Shown: positions 812-35,468, counted from the stretch's first letter. The stretch is 64,000 nt of DNA from Candidatus Entotheonellaceae bacterium (GCA_965238075.1 OZ250173.1:416001-480000); one strand, 5' to 3'. Notes: generated by a model from the letters alone, not told the origin. Translations and numbers: made by a program.

Positions 812-2236
812 TTACGCCTCAGCTTTTTGCCGCAACGCCGTGAGAAACCGCTCATGGATGTTATCAAAACCACCGTTGGACATGACGACCACCAAGTCCC
901 CATCCTGTGCCTCGCCCGACACCTGCGCAATGATGGCCGCGGTGTCCGGATGGAACCACGCCGCCACCCCGCGCGCCCTCAACGCCTCTATCAACTGCTG
1001 TTCCGACAGCCGCTGGTCGGCCGCAAGCTCCTCTTTGCGGAACACCTCGGCGATGATCACGCAGTCAGCGCGGCTCAGCGCATCGACGTAAGCCTCCTGA
1101 AACACCTTGCGTCGAGTCGTCGCGGTGCGCGGCTCGAAAACGGCCCACACACGGGCCCCGGGGTACGCCTGCCGCAGACCCTCCAGGGTCACGCCGACGG
1201 CCGTCGGGTGATGCGCGAAATCGTCGATAACCGTAACGCCGCCGACCTCGCCGCGCACCTCACACCGCCGCTTGAGGCTGGCAAAGCTCGCCAGCCCCGA
1301 GGCAATGTGTTCTTTCGGGACCCCTAGCCGGTGCGCGACGGCAATCGCCGCCAGGGCGTTACACACGTTGTGGCGGCCGAACAGCGTCGTCACGAAACGC
1401 CCGAACCCTTTGCCGCCGTGGAGAACCTCCATCACCGTGCCGCCCTCCCCGGCGCCCCACTCAGCCGCCTGCCAGTCGGCGCCCGCTTGCAGACCGTACG
1501 TCTGCACGCTGCCCGCAATCGCCTCCTCGGCGCATAAGGAGCGCACGCCGGGGTCGTCGGCGCACGCAATCAGGCAGCCCTCAGCGGGCAACAGACGTAC
1601 GAACCGCGCGAAAGCCGACCGCACGTGCGCCAAGTCCCGGTAGATGTCGGCGTGGTCGAACTCCAAGGCCGTCAATACCGCCGTGCGCGGACGGTAATGC
1701 AGGAACTTGGGGCCCTTGTCGAAATAGGCGCTGTCGTATTCGTCGCCTTCCACGACGACGTGCTCCCCTCCTCCCAGGCGAATGGGGGTGGGAAAATTGC
1801 GCATCACGGCACCGACGAAAAAGCCGGGTTCGCAGCCGGCATGATCCAGCAGCCAGGCGATCAATGCCGTCGTGGTGCTCTTGCCGTGCGTGCCAGCGAC
1901 CACCACGGCATGCCGCTCGCCGATGAGAAAATGGGCCAACGCTTGCGGAAACGACATCACGGGAACGCCGGCCTTTGCCGCCGCTTCGGCCTCGGGATTA
2001 CCCCGCGACACGGCGTTACCCACGACAACCAGATCGGGGTGCGGTTGCAGGTGGGCGGCCTTGAATCCCTCGTACAACGGGATACCCCAGTCGTGCAGCT
2101 GCGTGGACATCGGCGGGTAGATGTGCTGATCGGAACCAGTGACCCGGTGACCGAGGCTCTTCAGGAGAACGGCTAGGCTACCCATGCCCGTGCCGCAGAT
2201 GGCGATAAGGTGGATGTGCTGCGGGCGTAGAGTCAC
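812..2236 (-). CDS. mpl: UDP-N-acetylmuramate:L-Ala-gamma-D-Glu-meso-DAP ligase (murein peptide ligase)
   Basis: IHLIAICGTGMGSLA, YPPMSTQL, AGTHGKSTT, EGDEYDSAYFDKGPKFLHY, DDFAHHP, MSNGGFDNIH are Mpl hallmarks. Confidence 0.93.
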   Translation of the reverse strand: MTLRPQHIHLIAICGTGMGSLAVLLKSLGHRVTGSDQHIYPPMSTQLHDWGIPLYEGFKAAHLQPHPDLVVVGNAVSRGNPEAEAAAKAGVPVMSFPQALAHFLIGERHAVVVAGTHGKSTTTALIAWLLDHAGCEPGFFVGAVMRNFPTPIRLGGGEHVVVEGDEYDSAYFDKGPKFLHYRPRTAVLTALEFDHADIYRDLAHVRSAFARFVRLLPAEGCLIACADDPGVRSLCAEEAIAGSVQTYGLQAGADWQAAEWGAGEGGTVMEVLHGGKGFGRFVTTLFGRHNVCNALAAIAVAHRLGVPKEHIASGLASFASLKRRCEVRGEVGGVTVIDDFAHHPTAVGVTLEGLRQAYPGARVWAVFEPRTATTRRKVFQEAYVDALSRADCVIIAEVFRKEELAADQRLSEQQLIEALRARGVAAWFHPDTAAIIAQVSGEAQDGDLVVVMSNGGFDNIHERFLTALRQKAEA

Positions 2237-4976: not shown

Positions 4977-5810
4977 ATGCGAGGATTGGGCCGCTCCGCG
5001 GACGGCCGCCGCAGCCGGCGGCGAGCTTTGGTAACCGGCGCCTCGTCGGGGCTGGGCGCGGCATTCGCCGAGGCGCTGGCGCGGCGCGGCTTTGACTTAG
5101 TGATCGTTGCCCGGCGGCGCGAGCGGCTGCAAACCCTGGCCGAGGAGCTGCGCGATCGCTACGAGGTAGCCGTGCAGGTGCTGGTTGCTGATCTCACCCA
5201 GGCCGCGGACCTCCAGGCCGTCGAGAGCCACACGGCCAGTGACGCCGCCCTGACGATCCTGGTGAACAACGCCGGCTTCGGCACCACCGGGCGCTTCGCG
5301 GCGCTGGATCCGGACCGTGACGAAGCCGAGGTCCGCCTGAACGTCGTAGCGCTCTCCCGCCTCACCCGCGCCGCGCTGCCCGGCATGATCGCCCGCGGTC
5401 TGGGCGGCATCATCAACGTGTCGTCCGTGTCGGGGCTGCTGCCCGGCCCCTACCACGCCACCTACGGCGCCTCCAAGGCGTTCGTCAACAGTTTCACGGA
5501 GGCTCTGCACGAGGAACTGCGCGGCACCGGCGTGCGCGTGCAGGCCCTGTGCCCCGGTTTCACGCGCACCGAGTTCCAGGAACGCGCCGGCGTCGCTTCG
5601 CAGAACGTTCCGGCTTTCGCCTGGATGACTCCCGAATATGTCGTCGAAGCGTCGCTGACCGGCCTGCGCCGCGGCACGCTGGTGTGCGTACCCGGTCCAA
5701 TTTACCAAGTGCTGACGGCACTCATCACGGTATTGCCGCGTTCCTTGGTGCGCCGCTTGTACGGCATCACGTCGCGCCGGGCATTGAACCAAATGAGCGA
5801 ACGGATTTGA
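4977..5810 (+). CDS. short-chain dehydrogenase/reductase
   Basis: TGASSGLG, NNAGFG, YGASK; AAAGGA RBS before ATG 4977. Confidence 0.9.
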   Translation: MRGLGRSADGRRSRRRALVTGASSGLGAAFAEALARRGFDLVIVARRRERLQTLAEELRDRYEVAVQVLVADLTQAADLQAVESHTASDAALTILVNNAGFGTTGRFAALDPDRDEAEVRLNVVALSRLTRAALPGMIARGLGGIINVSSVSGLLPGPYHATYGASKAFVNSFTEALHEELRGTGVRVQALCPGFTRTEFQERAGVASQNVPAFAWMTPEYVVEASLTGLRRGTLVCVPGPIYQVLTALITVLPRSLVRRLYGITSRRALNQMSERI

Positions 5811-28462: not shown

Positions 28463-29548
28463 ATGAACATTACCGACGTGCAAGCCCACGTATTGGCCAT
28501 TCCCATGGCGCCCGGCAAACAGAAAATGCCGTGGACGTGGGGAAATTTCAACCAAGTGATTATTTCCGTGCATACCGATGCGGGCTTGACGGGATACGGC
28601 GAGGCGTTCGGGTACGGCGTGCCGCAGGCCACCGCCTCGGTGGTGAGCGAGATTCTCAAACCCATGCTCGTCGGCGCCGACGCCACCCAGATCACCGCGC
28701 TGCAGGACCGCATGTTCCGCCACACCCACCTGTTCGGACGTTACGGTGTCACCAATTTTGCCATCAGCGGGGTGGACATCGCACTGTGGGACCTGGCCGG
28801 GAAGAGCGCCGGCTTGCCGTTGTACCGCCTGTTCGGCGGCGCCGAGGCCGCCGACGTGCCGGCCTATGCCAGCCTGGTTCGCTATGGGGCGCCGGAGCAC
28901 GTATCCGAGGCGGTAGCGGAGGCGCGGGATGAAGGCTATGACGCCATCAAATTGCACCAGGTGGACGTGGAAAGCGTGCACGTGGCGCGCGAGGCGGCGG
29001 GCGAGGACATTCTGCTGATGCTGGACGTCAATTGCGCCTGGACGCCGGACGAGGCGCTGGATATCGCCATGCAATGCATTCCCTACAATCTCTATTGGCT
29101 GGAAGAACCCATCTGGCCGCCGGAGGATTTCGAGGCGCTGGCGCATCTCGGGCAGGCCAGCGAGACGCCGATTGCCACCGGCGAGAACGCCTGCACGGTG
29201 TACCAGTTTCAACACATGATGGAAACCGGCTGCGCATCCTTTGTTCAACCGAGCGTCACAAAGGTGGGCGGCGTCAGCGAGTGGCGCAAGGTGGCGGCGT
29301 TGGCAGAGGCCCGCAATATCCAGGTGGCGTCGCATTCGCCGTACTTCGGTCCCGGCCTGCTTGCCACCGCGCACCTGGTGGCGGCCACGCCGCACGCGCC
29401 GTGGCTGGAGGTGCTTTACGCGCCGCAGGAAGCCAGCGTGTTCACCGAGGAGCCGCAGGTCGTGGACGGCATGTTTGCCGTGCCCCAAGGGCCGGGGCTG
29501 GGGCTGGAGATCGATCTGGACGTGTTGTCGCGTTACCGCGTGGCGTGA
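28463..29548 (+). CDS. mandelate racemase/muconate lactonizing enzyme family protein
   Basis: TDAGLTGYGE, SGVDIALWDLAGK, KLH, LMLDVN, WLEEP, ATGEN, GPGLG. Confidence 0.9.
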   Translation: MNITDVQAHVLAIPMAPGKQKMPWTWGNFNQVIISVHTDAGLTGYGEAFGYGVPQATASVVSEILKPMLVGADATQITALQDRMFRHTHLFGRYGVTNFAISGVDIALWDLAGKSAGLPLYRLFGGAEAADVPAYASLVRYGAPEHVSEAVAEARDEGYDAIKLHQVDVESVHVAREAAGEDILLMLDVNCAWTPDEALDIAMQCIPYNLYWLEEPIWPPEDFEALAHLGQASETPIATGENACTVYQFQHMMETGCASFVQPSVTKVGGVSEWRKVAALAEARNIQVASHSPYFGPGLLATAHLVAATPHAPWLEVLYAPQEASVFTEEPQVVDGMFAVPQGPGLGLEIDLDVLSRYRVA

Positions 29549-29778
29549 TGATGATTGAAATCCGTTAGCCGGCGAGTGGCAGCCTCACCCGTGCACGGCT
29601 GCCTCGTCGGGAGCGCCGAAGCGTAGATCCATAGCGACCCGCACGACGATGAACTATGCAGACGAACCAATTGCTGGTGATGGTCGTGTCGGGGCTGAGC
29701 TCGGCACCCAACACTTCAACTCCGAGGGAGACGCCGCCGCTACGGACGTTAGAGCGCCACTAACAGCCGTGGCAGGCA

Positions 29779-29806
29779 ACTTCGGATAAGGCCAGTTATG
29801 TTAACT
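29779..29806 (+). other. XerC/XerD dif-like recombination site 1
   Basis: ACTTCGGATAA-GGCCAG-TTATGTTAACT: 11-6-11 layout; right arm 10/11 identical to the canonical XerD arm TTATGTTAAAT. Confidence 0.85.
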
Positions 29807-29875
29807 GGATAGGTTTGGCTACGCCCTCTTTGGCTGTCGGCCCGCGTATCATCTCTTTCACTTGGAGTTGAGGTT

Positions 29876-30610
29876 ATGTTGACTACCAGCAATATAATTC
29901 AGCGAACATTTCACATACGATGGAAAAACTCGACAGGTACGGGTTTTACCGTCGATCATGGCTCTAAGCAGTATCTGGTTACGGCCTATCATGTCGTAGA
30001 TGGGATTAAATCAGGTGATGTCATTAAGATTTTTTATAAAAATGCCTGGGGCGACCTCGTCGTCGATGTCGTAGGAGTCGGTAAGGGCGAAGTGGATGTG
30101 GCCGTTCTTGCATGTTCCGTTCAGCTCTCTCCTTCACTTCCGCTGGTTCCATCGGCAGCGAACCTCTTTTACGGTCAGCCTGTCCAATTTCTGGGATACC
30201 CCTTTGGTTGGGACAGCGGAGGCAAGCGAACATCTGGGAATCGGGGAATCCCATTACCTTTTGTAAAGGCTGGGATCATTAGTGCGCTGGACTTCGACGG
30301 GGATGTAAAACGGATTTTCTTGGATGCGCACGGCAATAAGGGGTTTAGTGGTGGCCCGGTGGTGTTTGAGCCGCATGCGAAACCCAATGCCGAGTTACAT
30401 GTGGCCGGTATCGTCTCATGCTTCCCAATATCGAAAAACTGGCGAAACTGGCTGCCGGTTGTGGACCACACAGGCACCCCGATAACTGATCCTCAAGGAA
30501 ATCCGCTTGGATATGTTCAAGATAACCCTGGAATCGTGGTTGCATTCAACATCAAACACGCCGTAGATATGATTGACGCCAATCCAATCGGTTTTCAGTT
30601 GCCTACATAA
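29876..30610 (+). CDS. trypsin-like serine protease domain protein (cassette 1 cargo)
   Basis: GTGF, LVTAYH (His), DVAVL (Asp), FLGYP, GFSGGPV (Ser); AT-richer codon usage than flanks; GAGG RBS. Confidence 0.8.
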   Translation: MLTTSNIIQRTFHIRWKNSTGTGFTVDHGSKQYLVTAYHVVDGIKSGDVIKIFYKNAWGDLVVDVVGVGKGEVDVAVLACSVQLSPSLPLVPSAANLFYGQPVQFLGYPFGWDSGGKRTSGNRGIPLPFVKAGIISALDFDGDVKRIFLDAHGNKGFSGGPVVFEPHAKPNAELHVAGIVSCFPISKNWRNWLPVVDHTGTPITDPQGNPLGYVQDNPGIVVAFNIKHAVDMIDANPIGFQLPT

Positions 30611-30679
30611 ATGGTCGCCTATATCGTGTGCTACAGGCGGCAAGGCTTAAGTGGCTCTTCTGCATCCTCCACTCAACTT

Positions 30680-33184
30680 GTAGAGTCGGCAACTGGCGCG
30701 GTAGCGGTAGGCGGATGGGGGTAGCTGTTCCCGGCGGCTTTCGCTATGCCGGTGCCTCACTCCATGCCATAACCCCGTTTCCAGTCGCCGCTCATCGAAC
30801 CGGACGTGCAGATCTCCCGCATCCGGCTCTCGGACGAGATCATGCCTTCGCCCACGGAAGGCTTGCCGCTCGCGATCTAAGGCGCGTGAGACCGTACTCC
30901 TGCCACAGTCGCTTGTCCGGGAAGCGTTTGCACTACGGCCCGGTGACACATAGTTCCCTGGCCGCACCTTGTGCTTACGACAGAGCCACCGGCGCAGCCG
31001 CCGTTTGGCATGCCGATCAATCGCCTTGTAAGCTGGGCCGATCTGCCCCAGGATGAAGTAGTTCGCCCATCCGGTCAGAAGCCGGTTCAGGCGCTCCACC
31101 ACAACCTCTGGCGACAGCAGCTCGTTACACGGCATCGTCAACTTGCTCACACGACGGCAGATGCTCCGGACGCTCGCCGCACTCGGGCGGGTGCCAATGT
31201 AGGCACGGCCCGTATCCCGACGGTAGTTGCGTCCAATCCGGTAGCCGAGGAACTCAATCGCCTCCTCCGGCACCCGGCAGCAACGGGTCTTCTCAACATT
31301 GATCGCCAACTTCAGACACTTCATCAGAACTTCGACCGCCGCCAGTATCTCTGCCGCCGGCGCTTTGCCGAGCACCACGAAGTCATCCGCATAGTTGACG
31401 ATCTCTGCCTTGAAGCGCCGGGCATAGCCCAGCACCTTCCAGCCCACGATGAAACGACGCATGTAGATGTTGCTGAGAAGCGGCGAGATCGGTGCCCCTT
31501 GCGGGGTCCCTCTCCGCTCGCACCGCGCCCGATTTGTGCGGCGGCGGCTACCGATGACCGTCGTCCTCCACAACCGCCATCTCCAGCCACGCCTTGATCC
31601 AACCCAACAGTCGCCCGTCACTCACGCGGCGGGCGATGGACCGCATCAACTCCGTGCGGCGCGGCGCGGAATCTGGCCGAAGTAGTCCGACAGGTCGGCA
31701 TCCACCACCTCCCGGTGGCCTGCGTTCAGCAGCCGGTGCACACGCCTGACTGCATCGTGCGCGTTCCGGCCCGACCGGTAGGCATACTGCTCCGGTTGCA
31801 AATCGGTGCCCCTTCGGGGTCCCTCTCCGCTCGACCGCGCCCGATTTGTGCGGCGGCGGCTACCGTGACCGTCGTCCTCCACAACCGCCATCTCCAGCCA
31901 CGCCTTGATCCAACCCAACAGTCGCCCGTCACTCACGCGGCGGGCGATGGACCGCATCACCTCCGCGTCCTGGCGAAGTAGTCCGACAGGTCGGCATCCA
32001 CCACCTCCCGGTGGCCTGCGTTCAGCAGCCGGTGCACACGGACTGCATCGTGCGCGTTCCGGCCCGACCGGTAGGCATACTGCTCCGGTTGCTTCGGCCT
32101 CGAAGATCGGCGACAACACCAACATCGTCTGCGACCCCGGTCCCGCAGACGGGATGCCCAACGGCCGGAATTTACCTTCGCGATGAGAACCTGCCGCGCT
32201 CTCGGTCGGTAGGTCCCCGCCTTCAGGTCTCGCGCCAGTACTCCCAGCCATCGATCCACCCCGAACGCCTCGATGTCCGCCACCGTCTCGCCGTCAACAC
32301 CAGCAGCGCCGCCGTTGCGACGGACTACCTGCCAGGCGACCGCAAGCACGTCTTCGCGCCACACCTTGTCGCTCAGAGAGTAAAACCGCAGGCTCGGAGC
32401 TTCCTTCGCTTTCGCATGTAGCGCCGTCTGGAATCGCTGAACTTTCGCTGAGGCTGTTAGGTTCTCACCAGTCCCCACAACCGCCATCTCACCTTCCTCG
32501 CCCGTCACTCACGCGGCGGGCATACTCCGCGTGCGGAATCTGGCCGCTGCCGGTCTCGAACATCGCCGCCGTCTGCGCCACCCCGGTCCCCAGACACGGG
32601 ATGCCCAACGGCCCCTTCCCGTCTCGCCGTCAACACCAGCAGCGCCGCCGTTGCGACGGACTACCTGCCAGGCGACCGCAAGCACGTCTTCGCGCCACAC
32701 CTTGTCGCTCAGAGAGTAAAACCGCAGGCTCGGAGCTTCCTTCCGGCATTACCCGACTTCACCGGTACTACGAGCCTCTCCGCCACCCTGCCGGCCCGAC
32801 TCGGCCCTCACGGGCTGTCGGTTGGCGCGTGCCACGCCACCAGCCAGGGCTTCCCGTGTTGTGTCCATTCCCCTGTTCCATGCGTGCTGCCGGCCAATAC
32901 CCCGGCGGAACCCGTCGGTGCTTGCGTCGCTCGCTTCCCGACGGGTAGCAGCCTTCCCCGTTATCAGGGCGGGTCGGCTTCCGCATTATGGCTTTCGAGG
33001 CCTGCTCGGCGTTCACTCACGTTACGGCCCGCATGGTCGCTAAGCCGCCCTGGGCGGCCCGTTCCACCGGAGTGCTTCAGACGATATCGTTACCTCCATC
33101 ATCCGCTCCGACTGCTACCGGCTGGAGCGACAGTTGCCGGACGGGATTCGCACCCGCTGAAGAATGGCGCCTTTCACGGCGCAC
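30680..33184 (-). mobile_element. group II intron (IIB-like, AGC triad) inserted in dif-like site 2
   Basis: 5' end GTGCGCCGTGAAAGGCG at 33184; domain V GAGCCGGATGCGGGAGATCTGCACGTCCGGTTC at 30829-30797; 3' end ...CCGACTCTAC at 30680; internal RT/maturase. Confidence 0.9.
30840..32468 (-). pseudogene. ltrA: intron-encoded reverse transcriptase/maturase, frameshifted and internally duplicated
   Basis: Fragments across frames: [76 protein letters not shown], ending SLPWAKA*; no endonuclease domain seen. Confidence 0.85.
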
Positions 33185-33208
33185 CCGATAAGCCCTTATA
33201 TGTCGCCT
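33185..33208 (+). other. dif-like site 2, right portion (left 4 nt ACTT at 30676-30679)
   Basis: Joining the intron flanks gives ACTTCCGATAA-GCCCTT-ATATGTCGCCT. Confidence 0.7.
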
Positions 33209-33244
33209 TCGGATGCGTTCCGGAGGCGTGGCTGGCAATTTCCG

Positions 33245-33568
33245 TTATTCACCCGCAGCCCTTTTTAACGCTTTCCAAATACGCCTTCCGACCGTCCAGA
33301 CAAACCACACAAGGAAGACACCGACTCCGAGCCCCCCGACGATGACCAGAACGTCAAGCAGATCATTCCGAAAGGCGGCTTGCCATCCAGCCTTGCGTAT
33401 CAGTTCTTCCACTGCCGCGTCGAGCTCTTACTCGGTCATGGGTTGTCTTTGTCCCCATTTCCATATCGTCCAGCCAGCCCACCCGAGAAAGCCAACGCCA
33501 CCGAGCGTCAAGAAGATGAACAGGTCGGAAAATGAAAAGGGCAAATTCCCCCTTGACCCTCGTTTCAT
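33245..33568 (-). pseudogene. small membrane protein interrupted by an in-frame TAA (33428-33430)
   Basis: GGAGAGG RBS; MKRGSRGNLPFSFSDLFIFLTLGGVGFLGWAGWTIWKWGQRQPMTE*ELDAAVEELIRKAGWQAAFRNDLLDVLVIVGGLGVGVFLVWFVWTVGRRIWKALKRAAGE*. Confidence 0.5.
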
Positions 33569-33649
33569 GATCTGTTCCTCTCCCCTTGCCTTACAGGGTG
33601 CCGTATGTCGCCCGTGCCTACTCTGTCACGTTTAGGAGACTTTGGAGAG

Positions 33650-34054
33650 ATGATTGAAGACCCGAACCTTACACGTCAGATACTTGAGTACTTTGCCCAA
33701 GAGGATGTGACGTTCCCCGCCAACAAAATGGTGGAGGACGACCTCACAGAAGCATTCCCCAATGATGAACTCTCTCGCCTCGAATACCATGTGATGTGTG
33801 CCAAAGAAAACGGGCTTCTCATAGTAGACATCCGGGAAAACCCAATGATGGACGGTACGGTGTTCGTCTTCGGTTTCATCTCAGGGCTTACAGCCAAAGG
33901 CAGCGAATATGTCCGCGGGTCTCGTAGCAAGTACTGGGCCGAGGCATGGAAACAGATCAAGAGCAAAGGAATGGAGGTTACAACGAAGCTCTTGATCGAA
34001 GTAATGTTTAAGCTGATGTCGTCATCCCTGTCAGCCGCGCCCAACTTCGCATAA
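33650..34054 (+). CDS. DUF2513-like winged-helix protein (cassette 2 cargo)
   Basis: MIEDPNLTRQILEY..LEYHV....ENGLL..ISGLTAKGSEYV....W..AW..IK pattern; GGAGAG RBS; stop codon lies inside the XerC arm of site 3. Confidence 0.65.
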   Translation: MIEDPNLTRQILEYFAQEDVTFPANKMVEDDLTEAFPNDELSRLEYHVMCAKENGLLIVDIRENPMMDGTVFVFGFISGLTAKGSEYVRGSRSKYWAEAWKQIKSKGMEVTTKLLIEVMFKLMSSSLSAAPNFA

Positions 34055-34072
34055 GGCCCCAATATGTAAACT
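34044..34072 (+). other. XerC/XerD dif-like site 3
   Basis: ACTTCGCATAA-GGCCCCA-ATATGTAAACT (7-nt centre); right arm 10/11 identical to the B. subtilis-type TTATGTAAACT. Confidence 0.7.
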
Positions 34073-34300
34073 TTGCCATTGGCTGAAACCCGCATAAACA
34101 TTGGCCGAACCGCAAACGGCCCGGGATCGAGCTTATGCGCCCCACCGGAAGGAAGCATTCCCGGGAATTAAGGCAGGCATGGTGGGACGCGGAATTGGAT
34201 TTAGGAGCGTTTTGGCGGCCTGGGTGGGACACCGACACACAGTCCACAGCATTGCTCCGATACGCCTCGACAAAGAAAACCCTGCGCCGGATCAATCGGT

Positions 34301-35176
34301 TCAGATCGACGGGTAAAACTCGGGGCGAATGTACACAACACCTTTGCCCCAGTCGTAGGTCTTGACACCAACAGGCGGTTGGCTGCCAGGGCCGCAGAAG
34401 GTTTCGAGTTCGCGCTCGGTAACCAGCGGCCAGCGGTCGATAAGCTCGGCGGGGGTGGGGTCGGGACGCGGCGCGGCGGTCGAGCCGGGCACGGCATGCT
34501 CCATGGCTTTGATGTAATCCTCGAAGTCACACCAGCCGGGGACGGTGTGCTCACCGCCGGGACCGCGAAACAGCAGGGTCGGGAAGGCGTAGCGGTCGAG
34601 GCCGTCAGTCTGCTTCAGGTTGCCGATACCGGGCCAGTCGCCTTCAAGGTGCCGGACGTAATCGTTGGGACGGCGGGTTTCCTCACAATCCCGGCGATAG
34701 GCGTCGCGGGCTTCCTGGCCGGCGAGGTCGCGGGCGAAACGCTCGCGGTCAAGCCCTGGGGTGTCGCGGACGGCGTCGATGACGCGCTCGGGAGTGTCAG
34801 GCGGGCAGCCGAAGACAAACACCGCTTCCCGCATGCGGCGCAGGGCGTCACGCGCGATGGCTTCTCCCTGCAGGCGGGCGGCGCAAAATCCGATGCCGGC
34901 AGCCTCGCTGCCGCCGGGCGTCCAGCTGAGCGATACCGGGTATGGGCTGCCGGTATGACCAGCCACCACGGACCAGTATTCCGACAACCGAGGCGCACGG
35001 CCGACCGGATCCCAATTCGGCTTCTTGGTCAAATCGGCCACCAGGCCGCCCATCACCAGCCGCCAGTCGCAGCGGTCCTCGTAGCGCCAGCGCAGCAGCC
35101 GCAGTTTCGGTTCCGATCCCCAGGCCCACGAACACATCACGTCGGTGTACTCAACGACCTCCAAGCGCTGCCCCAT
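34301..35176 (-). CDS. DsbA/YjbH-like thioredoxin-fold protein
   Basis: YTDVMCSWAWGSEP, VMGGL, LRRMREA, FPTL cis-Pro loop; AGGAG RBS. Confidence 0.75.
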   Translation of the reverse strand: MGQRLEVVEYTDVMCSWAWGSEPKLRLLRWRYEDRCDWRLVMGGLVADLTKKPNWDPVGRAPRLSEYWSVVAGHTGSPYPVSLSWTPGGSEAAGIGFCAARLQGEAIARDALRRMREAVFVFGCPPDTPERVIDAVRDTPGLDRERFARDLAGQEARDAYRRDCEETRRPNDYVRHLEGDWPGIGNLKQTDGLDRYAFPTLLFRGPGGEHTVPGWCDFEDYIKAMEHAVPGSTAAPRPDPTPAELIDRWPLVTERELETFCGPGSQPPVGVKTYDWGKGVVYIRPEFYPSI

Positions 35177-35468
35177 TTCGGCTCTCCTCGCATCCATCGT
35201 CATCGCCGGTCCCGGTCTCCGAGCGGAGACTGTTTCATCGTGTGGCTCGCAGTGTAACGACGGTTTTGGCGCATGTCTATTTCTCGACCGACGCGCAAGT
35301 GCCCCGTTTTGGATTGACCCCTCTCCCCAGCCCCTTCCTCGCGGATGGGGGAGAAGACCGCAACGCGGGCAGTTTTACAAGCAGTCGCGTTGTATGCTAT
35401 GAACCCTGCGAACGGTTCCTGTTGTGGTTTATATCCTTCCCAATCCTGATGCGACTTTAGGAGATGCC

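Follow-up and report, generated by a model that had tools for sequence, protein, structure and literature searches.

Which machinery assembled the short row of genes lying between directly repeated, dif-like sites at positions 29779 to 34072 of this 64,000-nt stretch from a Candidatus Entotheonellaceae bacterium (GCA_965238075.1 OZ250173.1:416001-480000), and is this locus a singular case or part of a larger system? The stretch, referred to here as the window, corresponds to positions 416001-480000 of one 3.35-Mb contig of a metagenome-assembled genome (MAG) with an estimated completeness of 93%, designated G000. The analysis indicates that about 13 such arrays, this locus among them, are scattered round the G000 chromosome, with 0-3 cassettes each, and that they probably form an integron-like cassette system whose engine is the XerC/XerD pair of the host. 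G000 was compared with five relatives (G001, G002, G003, G004, and G005), resulting in a genus set of six genomes of Entotheonella-like Tectomicrobia, with a phylum set of 17 genomes that comprises these six and 11 of other genera, and, for cassette DNA, with 30 other genomes. Domains were assigned with Pfam, RNA families with Rfam, and defence matches with PADLOC models. The window array and its immediate flanks consist of the following parts:

28463..29548, plus strand: left host gene, of the enolase/mandelate-racemase superfamily (Pfam MR_MLE_C 216.7 bits, MR_MLE_N 74.6 bits)
29779..29806, plus strand: site 1, first of the array, with XerC-type arm ACTTCGGATAA, centre GGCCAG, and XerD-type arm TTATGTTAACT
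29807..30675, plus strand: cassette 1, 869 bp, with the gene of a 244-amino-acid (aa) trypsin-like serine peptidase at 29876-30610
30676..30679, plus strand: left piece of site 2, ACTT, separated from the rest by an intron
30680..33184, minus strand: decayed group II intron in the XerC-type arm of site 2, recognised by Rfam, RVT_1, and GIIM
33185..33208, plus strand: right piece of site 2, CCGATAA, centre GCCCTT, and arm ATATGTCGCCT
33209..34043, plus strand: cassette 2, 835 bp, with a DUF2513-like gene at 33605-34054 (plus strand) and two small membrane-peptide open reading frames (ORFs) on the minus strand
33245-33412 and 33428-33568, minus strand: these membrane-peptide ORFs, in tandem, each encoding one hydrophobic helix and then a Trp/Arg-rich tail
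34044..34072, plus strand: site 3, terminal, with ACTTCGCATAA, the 7-nt centre GGCCCCA, and the dif-type arm ATATGTAAACT
34073..34240, plus strand: conserved extension of ~170 nt joined to site 3, with the motifs CCCACC(G) ... (C)GGTGGG ... GGTGGGG
34301..35203, minus strand: DsbA/thioredoxin-like host gene (Pfam Thioredoxin_5 43.2 bits), reading toward the extension and the array

The order of the array is first site, cassette, site, cassette, and terminal site with extension. All three sites lie in one orientation on the plus strand and are the sole such sites within the window. Site 1 was matched once by a strict site pattern, as compared to 0 expected from 100 shuffles. An initial annotation made from this DNA had described three dif-like sites with unlike centres, a reconstituted site 2, and two AT-richer modules of ~0.85 kb, and all of these were recovered: the three centres are those given above, the two pieces of site 2 join across the decayed intron, and the modules have a GC content of 0.49 (peptidase ORF of cassette 1) and 0.53 (cassette 2), as compared to 0.63-0.64 in the window flanks. 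The protease it had placed in the first module has a Pfam Trypsin_2 match of 52.8 bits and was also matched by the PADLOC models LmuA (33.5 bits) and RT-Protease_XI (29.5 bits). The description of the second module stood in part. The DUF2513-like gene is present, with a weak Pfam match of 26.6 bits that lies under the cut-off of 29.6, and its stop codon is, as had been noticed, the TAA of the XerC-type arm of site 3; what had been taken for one broken membrane-peptide gene may be two tandem ORFs, which look like paralogues. Both of these ORFs are oriented along the read-through from the platform that is proposed below. The statement that the window lacks an integrase or xer gene was confirmed, since no Phage_integrase-family match was found anywhere in the 64 kb. 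Overlooked at that stage was the conserved extension past site 3, which is the anchor of the array.

Scanning the genome and its relatives with the strict site pattern ACTTCNNATAA-N6/7-WTATGT, a check akin to one proposed in the same annotation, demonstrated that the site family is real and that the locus is not unique. Strict sites other than dif number 14 in G000, 25 in G003, 14 in G001, 4 in G005, 4 in G002, and 0 in G004, and the 11 genomes of other genera have 0-3 strict matches each. The control, consisting of the same pattern reversed, returned 0 matches in every genome, as compared to 15 forward matches, including dif, in G000. The expansion of sites is specific to this genus. Looser scans of G000 resulted in about 24 credible non-dif sites plus two degenerate ones, and sites 1 to 3 together with some 22 others fit ACTTCNNATAA-N6/7-WTATGTNNNCT, with arms of ~11 bp in imperfect inverted symmetry. 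The non-dif sites retain both arms of dif around GC-rich centres of 6-7 nt. Terminal sites depart from dif mainly by the centre and have a right arm of the dif type (ATATGTAAACTTT), whereas in internal sites, such as site 2, the outer XerD-type arm is also divergent (...GTCGCCT vs ...GTAAACT).

These data bear on the explanation that the repeats are inactive, either as relics or as a repeat family that spread with the platform or is kept as intron homing sites, and that the variation described below stems from homologous recombination and deletion at hotspots of accessory genes. That several sites are degenerate is in agreement with this proposal. However, the roughly 24 extra sites keep their arms and the 6-7-nt spacing although centres and flanks differ completely among them, and a limited set of centres, namely, GGGCGG, GGCCAG, CCCTGCG, GCGCTT, and GGCCATT, recurs across loci and genomes. 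Furthermore, the sites are clustered and have a single orientation inside every multi-site array examined, which is unexpected for relics. Among the matches listed for the site pattern in 185,579 species' genomes, the ordinary dif of many phyla was matched once per contig, and matches on several contigs (5 contigs) came from one Tectimicrobiota MAG record only. In a Planococcus record (L151), two dif-type sites at 1468-1495 (plus strand) and 5260-5287 (minus strand) are inverted and 3.8 kb apart, and a second Planococcus genome had matches on two contigs; the inverted sites may correspond to a dif-module-like arrangement in Bacillota.

Direct dif-like repeats that enclose elements devoid of a recombinase gene are also seen in stacks of integrative mobile elements exploiting Xer (IMEX), and the window array might be such a stack at the chromosomal dif, the functional dif being either site 1 or site 3; the locus is in fact ~0.25 Mb from an inflection of the GC skew near 0.2 Mb. 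This explanation is extremely improbable. The true dif, ACTTCTGATAA GTTATA TTATGTAAACT, was located at 3,139,041-3,139,063 of G000, ~659 kb from the window array. In the strict-pattern scan of the phylum set, this site with its AT-rich centre was identical and single-copy in all six genus genomes, which marks it as dif. The xerD gene of G000 is ~20 kb away from it, and an XerD-sized Phage_integrase-family gene was found at a like distance in each relative. With the origin set at dnaA (1.86 Mb) and the terminus at dif, GGGCAGGG is the octamer with the strongest strand skew (z 7.2), 219 of its 311 copies being on the leading strand, and the cumulative curve of this octamer switches at 3,127,015. 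No comparable skewed octamer emerges for a terminus at 0.2 Mb or at 0.446 Mb, the latter being the position of the window locus. GGGCAGGG, which we take to fit the Escherichia coli consensus GGGNAGGG of FtsK-orienting polar sequences (KOPS), behaves as a KOPS-like polar motif switching at 3.127 Mb. GC skew alone is ambiguous, with a cumulative maximum near 0-0.2 Mb and dnaA at 1.86 Mb, and the distance from the dnaA antipode is a few hundred kb for dif as well as for the window. That site 1 might be the chromosomal dif, for which the initial annotation had suggested a check of GC skew and KOPS polarity, is excluded by the invariant single-copy GTTATA site and by the switch of GGGCAGGG there and not at the window; as site 1 is not dif, the window array is not considered an IMEX stack at dif. 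In addition, the relatives have variable content or none at the window locus, and similar arrays occupy about 12 other loci. The GC-skew inflection near 0.2 Mb is ~0.4 Mb away from the region of the octamer switch and dif. G000 has two genes with a Bac_DnaA domain, at 1,860,085 and 1,889,404 (234.8 and 165.6 bits, respectively), which are 29 kb apart.

What the arrays have in common is their end, since each is terminated by a dif-type site joined on its XerD side to the conserved ~170-nt extension, a combination referred to here as the platform. An nhmmer profile search of G000 returned the 10 known extension copies (E <= 3e-24) and 3 weak or truncated ones, and every copy follows a dif-like site or a remnant thereof. 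In the relatives, a covariance model of site plus extension had 16 matches of at least 60 bits in G003, 13 in G001, 6 in G005, 4 in G002, and 0 in G004. The window copy scored 137.3 bits and ends at ~34240. The three motifs CCCACC(G), (C)GGTGGG, and GGTGGGG are kept in 37 copies from six genomes. RNAalifold, applied to 10 and to 37 copies, proposed a 7-pair stem with one covarying inner pair (GC 23, AU 5, CG 2), and a column-pair scan of the extension gave nothing convincing. Variable hairpins appear in single folds, and the two strands fold similarly (mean of -64.9 kcal/mol for the top strand vs -63.5 kcal/mol, the top strand being the stabler one in 21 of 37 copies); no Rfam family match, full consensus structure, or strand preference was found for the extension.

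The surroundings of the platforms are equally uniform in one respect: each of the seven Pfam-supported genes adjoining an extension, among them the DsbA-like gene of the window, is transcribed toward it. No common gene was found beside the platforms, and the adjoining genes are of diverse, unrelated housekeeping types. A small coiled-coil protein with a membrane anchor and ...NxRFDxV... repeats, without a Pfam family, ends 40-100 nt past the extension at 4 of 12 platforms; copies of its ORF are located at L074:4171-4527 (plus strand), at L070:7322-7627 (minus strand), and beside the G000 sites 3066949 and 3298156.

Clear differences in cassette content emerge from the comparison of corresponding loci. 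The initial annotation had proposed to compare the region between the mandelate racemase and DsbA genes across strains, and the content indeed differs among the relatives, with breaks at the sites. The left flank has 89-96% identity in the five genus relatives. In G005, 96% identity extends until 29791, inside site 1, where another 1.7 kb with a HicB-like gene begins, and homology resumes at 34263, just past the extension. In G001, ~15 kb separate the left gene from a site-3-like site, and homology resumes at site 3. In G004, nothing matches from the end of the left gene to ~35460, the DsbA-like gene is without a counterpart, and no dif-like remnant was found at the junction. Cassettes 1 and 2 had no DNA match among the 30 other genomes searched. 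At the A3301 locus, which has conserved flanks, there are three cassettes in G000, other sites or inserts in G005, G001, G003, and G002, and none in G004. A different array with the same platform is present in G001 at the A2076 locus. The A2474 locus likewise has a different array in G001, and in G004 it is a clean empty site, with two convergent genes on either side of 3.1 kb.

Cassette units were also found to recur in unrelated arrays, with a boundary at the arm, which is difficult to reconcile with inactive repeats. The DUF3187 cassette of A2474 has a 96% identical segment beside the flank of the A3301 locus in G001 and G003, and this homology begins exactly at the right (XerD-type) arm. 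Another example is the DUF2971-like cassette of A2076, which recurs with 86-89% identity as the central unit of a three-cassette array on contig C53 of G003: the left centre GGGCGG and the right arm following it are shared, the homology ends with the right XerC-type arm, and the next centre and arm differ. G003 contains two different platforms to which one and the same cassette end is joined. A linkage test on 68 distinct sites, based on pairs that are few, related, and non-independent and that count less for this reason, revealed that the centre is shared in 0 of 5 pairs with upstream similarity only, as compared to 5 of 18 pairs with downstream similarity only. The centre follows the downstream context, and upstream similarity by itself never accompanies a shared centre, which points to the boundary between the left arm and the centre as the usual exchange point and argues further against inactive repeats. 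It is at this boundary that XerC cuts. Crossover at the junction of XerC-type arm and centre is, judged from these alignments, a lead and not a proof.

Public short-read data were used as contigs, with contig depths left out. Contigs of runs X4, X5, and X6, from two studies, cover both cassettes with 0 other letters, whereas run X1 has no cover over the cassettes. Contigs of three runs break at 29762/29791, in the centre of site 1, and the cassette 2 contig of one run ends at 34091, 19 nt past site 3. The contig joints listed lie inside the intron, and none of them skips a cassette. As to excision, these contigs speak neither for nor against it.

Which enzymes are available to act on these sites? 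Both Xer recombinases of G000 are intact, with XerD scoring 370 bits for TIGR02225 (cut-off 329.6) and XerC 337.2 bits for TIGR02224 (cut-off 335.15). The Phage_integrase family (PF00589) was searched in G000 and the five relatives; the other matches in G000 are fragments, leaving XerC and XerD as the sole intact tyrosine recombinases, and no match is located beside any G000 platform. The chief fragment (376858-377450, minus strand) belongs to the gene of a 198-aa FimB/FimE-like tyrosine recombinase that is broken in G000; G003 has several copies of this gene and G001 one (copies at L123:10335-10931, L124:2487-3080, and L125:3258-3854). A dif-like site at 373773 is ~3 kb from the broken G000 gene.

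A dedicated recombinase other than XerC/XerD could therefore be imagined to serve the sites, either this 198-aa enzyme or one encoded on a plasmid, a phage, or an unassembled replicon. The three genomes that possess the 198-aa gene, including the broken copy of G000, are the three most site-rich ones, and none of this class was seen in G005, G002, and G004; with the completeness of the MAG given above, a recombinase on an unbinned replicon is conceivable, which counts against host XerC/XerD as the engine. This alternative is nevertheless unlikely. In the one resolved context, contig C10 of G003, the 198-aa gene adjoins a Tn3-family transposase, as a transposon resolvase would, and another extra recombinase adjoins an IS91-type Y2 transposase; in G001, the ORFs neighbouring the 198-aa gene are without a Pfam family. 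Platforms and arrays exist in G005 and G002 without the 198-aa enzyme, for which reason it is kept as a minor rival only. Furthermore, both arms of the sites copy those of the host dif, which are read by XerC and XerD, and the correlation between recombinase and site number involves only 6 related genomes.

The cassettes, with a size of 0.3-2 kb and mostly one gene each, differ from their surroundings in composition. Seven of the 10 have a GC content of 0.42-0.53 and two of 0.57, and the remaining one is cassette 1 of the window, for which the value given above refers to the ORF alone; the segments of A2654 (0.65) and A1938 (0.62) are host-like in GC, and flanks range from 0.56 to 0.68. The cargo includes FRG+TPR, DUF6988, DUF5677, DUF2971 (twice), DUF3187, an Ada/AraC-methyltransferase fusion, Trypsin_2, and the DUF2513-like protein. 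PADLOC matches were obtained for 6 of the 10 cassette proteins tested (PDC-S15, PDC-S52, PDC-S31 twice, the LmuA/RT-protease-like protein, and a weaker PDC match), mostly to candidate families, so that a defence function is putative. The DUF2971-like cassette of A2076 is split by an insertion sequence (IS) with a DDE_Tnp_1 transposase (L069:5396-6442, minus strand, corresponding to 2077395-2078441 of G000), of which near-identical copies are present elsewhere in G000 and dozens in G001 and G002.

Most cassette genes read in the same direction as the flanking host gene. At 7 of the 10 right-hand sites examined, an ORF of at least 64 codons, preceded by a ribosome-binding-site-like motif and a start codon, begins 16-61 nt from the arm, which leaves little room for a promoter.

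The intron that splits site 2 belongs to a family with a preference for such sites. The window copy was matched by RF02003 (93.7 bits, gathering threshold 49) and RF00029 (44.6 bits, gathering threshold 40), its ORF is fragmented, and RVT_1 and GIIM were detected on 30647-31621. Its junctions, marked here by a slash, are ...TTATCGG/GTGCGCC... and ...GACTCTAC/AAGT... (minus strand; 3' ...GACTCTAC/aagttgag). Further copies are located on L080, L081, L085, L086, and partly L082 of G001 and near 727,800 of G000. Of nine junction sets from G000 and G001, six mark the identical point of a dif-like site, inside the left arm (bottom strand TTATC(A/G)G^AAGT), and three another target. Judged by these junctions, members of this intron family home into dif-like sites, at the XerC-type arm. 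The interior of the window copy (31555-32743) contains 100%-identical duplications of 125, 100, 67, and 52 nt, and in three runs the short-read contigs connect 32120 directly with 32559 and omit 438 nt, so that the assembly of this stretch may be scrambled.

Taken together, a host-driven cycle can be proposed. A platform with dif arms and extension anchors the array just downstream of an inward-transcribed host gene, and XerC/XerD would recombine the sites, causing cassettes to be inserted, swapped, and moved. Crossover would occur mainly at the boundary of XerC-type arm and centre, as in an XerC-first pathway of the CTX or cer type, and the unlike centres of neighbouring sites would keep the arrays from collapsing. 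Most cassette genes may be expressed by transcription entering from the platform, in the way Pc serves integron cassettes; the window array has two exceptions, both on the plus strand. The idea of an integron-like locus driven by the host XerC/XerD, put forward in the initial annotation, is supported in part, by the dif-arm copies, the intact recombinases, the turnover, the mostly low GC content, and the recurrence of cassettes, but the locus is not a singular one and site 1 is not dif.

A number of observations weigh against this proposal, and some of them are shared with the explanation by inactive repeats. As all arms are alike, they provide homology for ordinary recombination, and breaks of homology at the sites are also expected from it. 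Platform A3289 looks as if it was brought in by recombination through a duplicated piece of the paralogous coiled-coil gene, and the spread of platforms to new loci is not explained by the host-Xer cycle. Tests of xrs cassettes from Acinetobacter, one directly repeated pair among them, gave no excision (PMC11705084), so that flanking Xer sites alone are no proof of an excisable cassette; among the listed joints of the public-read contigs there was no recombination product, circle, or excision joint. Neighbouring centres differ, which blocks a complete exchange by XerC plus XerD between them, and at the A3301 platform the terminal centre differs between the orthologues of G000 and G005. The right end of the DUF3187 homology does not coincide with a site, and no flanking sites were recognised around the DUF6988 homologues of G001 and G005, which share 77% identity with the cassette gene. 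As to expression, the peptidase and DUF2513-like genes of the window, both on the plus strand, run opposite to the proposed read-through, and a simple promoter/terminator scan of window positions 29500-34500 gave nothing within the extension. In the light of the boundaries, centres, and orientations described above, inactive repeats are considered quite unlikely, and a cassette system driven by host XerC/XerD is retained as the probable explanation.

A bolder version of this model is possible, and it is put forward tentatively. The system might be an integrase-free analogue of integrons, in which the platform enables XerC/XerD to work at a distance from the terminus, perhaps independently of FtsK, and to capture circular, promoterless cassettes as a distributed store of defence genes, the intron having co-evolved with the sites. 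If true, uncultivated sponge symbionts would possess an exchangeable, distributed defence store made of single genes. Research on Xer-bounded modules has so far been almost confined to Acinetobacter plasmids, and it is disputed whether such modules move as cassettes. The unrelated, uncultivated phylum analysed here offers a cleaner architecture, with direct repeats, a recognisable platform, many loci, and natural turnover across six genomes, and may thus serve as a second, independent system for asking whether the housekeeping XerC/XerD pair can drive integron-like gene capture. It could reveal what kind of accessory DNA enables their action at a distance from dif, and it draws attention to a reservoir of small genes with a candidate role in defence and to an intron that has Xer sites as its special target.

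The closest known relatives of these arrays are the dif modules of Acinetobacter, which include chromosomal dif module islands (PMC12907356; also PMC6449649, PMC13141974). Both systems consist of short accessory modules between extra host Xer sites, form linear multi-module arrays without a dedicated recombinase, have centres that differ and decide compatibility, and contain sites that are targeted by site-specific mobile elements. However, most Acinetobacter cassettes have inverted flanking sites (PMC11705084), whereas here every array is one-directional. The arrays of the present study are, furthermore, exclusively chromosomal (~13 loci), belong to an unrelated phylum, end in a terminal site with an extension next to an inward-reading host gene, and carry defence-like cargo instead of antibiotic resistance. 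In the open full-text literature, supplements and subscription journals being outside this scope, no description of directly repeated chromosomal Xer cassettes outside Acinetobacter was found. A fixed position of a mobile element relative to the XerC arm of multi-copy sites is also known from the IS1202 group, members of which target Xer sites 5 bp from this arm, as described in PMC10132070 and in bioRxiv 10.1101/2022.12.17.520857; here, in contrast, a group II intron is found inside the XerC-type arm.

The lack of an own recombinase and the direct dif-like repeats flanking the units are shared with IMEX. These elements use host XerC/XerD, stack in tandem, and tolerate non-identical centres via an XerC-first pathway; their integration site is the chromosomal dif, and they comprise phages, satellites, and islands several kb in size. 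Examples of elements that exploit Xer are CTX-phi, TLC-phi, and the gonococcal island (PMC6744903, PMC9226527). In contrast to them, the units analysed here are mostly single genes of 0.3-2 kb, the arrays are scattered over non-dif loci ~0.66 Mb or more from dif, and no gene of an Xer activation factor was identified. The platform also resembles cer and psi. In these, ~160-180 bp of accessory DNA on the XerC side bind PepA together with ArgR or ArcA. A core Xer site is combined with an accessory stretch of similar length in both cases, and the extension could likewise impose directionality or independence from FtsK, but it is on the XerD side and has GGTGGG-type motifs.

The likeness to sedentary chromosomal integrons concerns the overall design: a fixed platform, short one-way cassettes that turn over between relatives, that mostly contain a single gene and that in many cases are apparently promoterless, and a site-specialised intron. 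Integrons recombine attC sites, which are long imperfect palindromes, as folded single strands by means of IntI, and class C group II introns are specialised on attC. The arrays described here, in contrast, have no intI beside an attI and no attC hairpins but 28-29-bp double-strand mimics of dif, and they are many and small. Expression from the platform would agree with most ORF starts and with the inward-reading neighbours, but both main genes of the window are reversed. The system departs from the defining features of Acinetobacter modules (orientation), of IMEX (position at dif), and of integrons (integrase and attC), and it shares the logic of all three.

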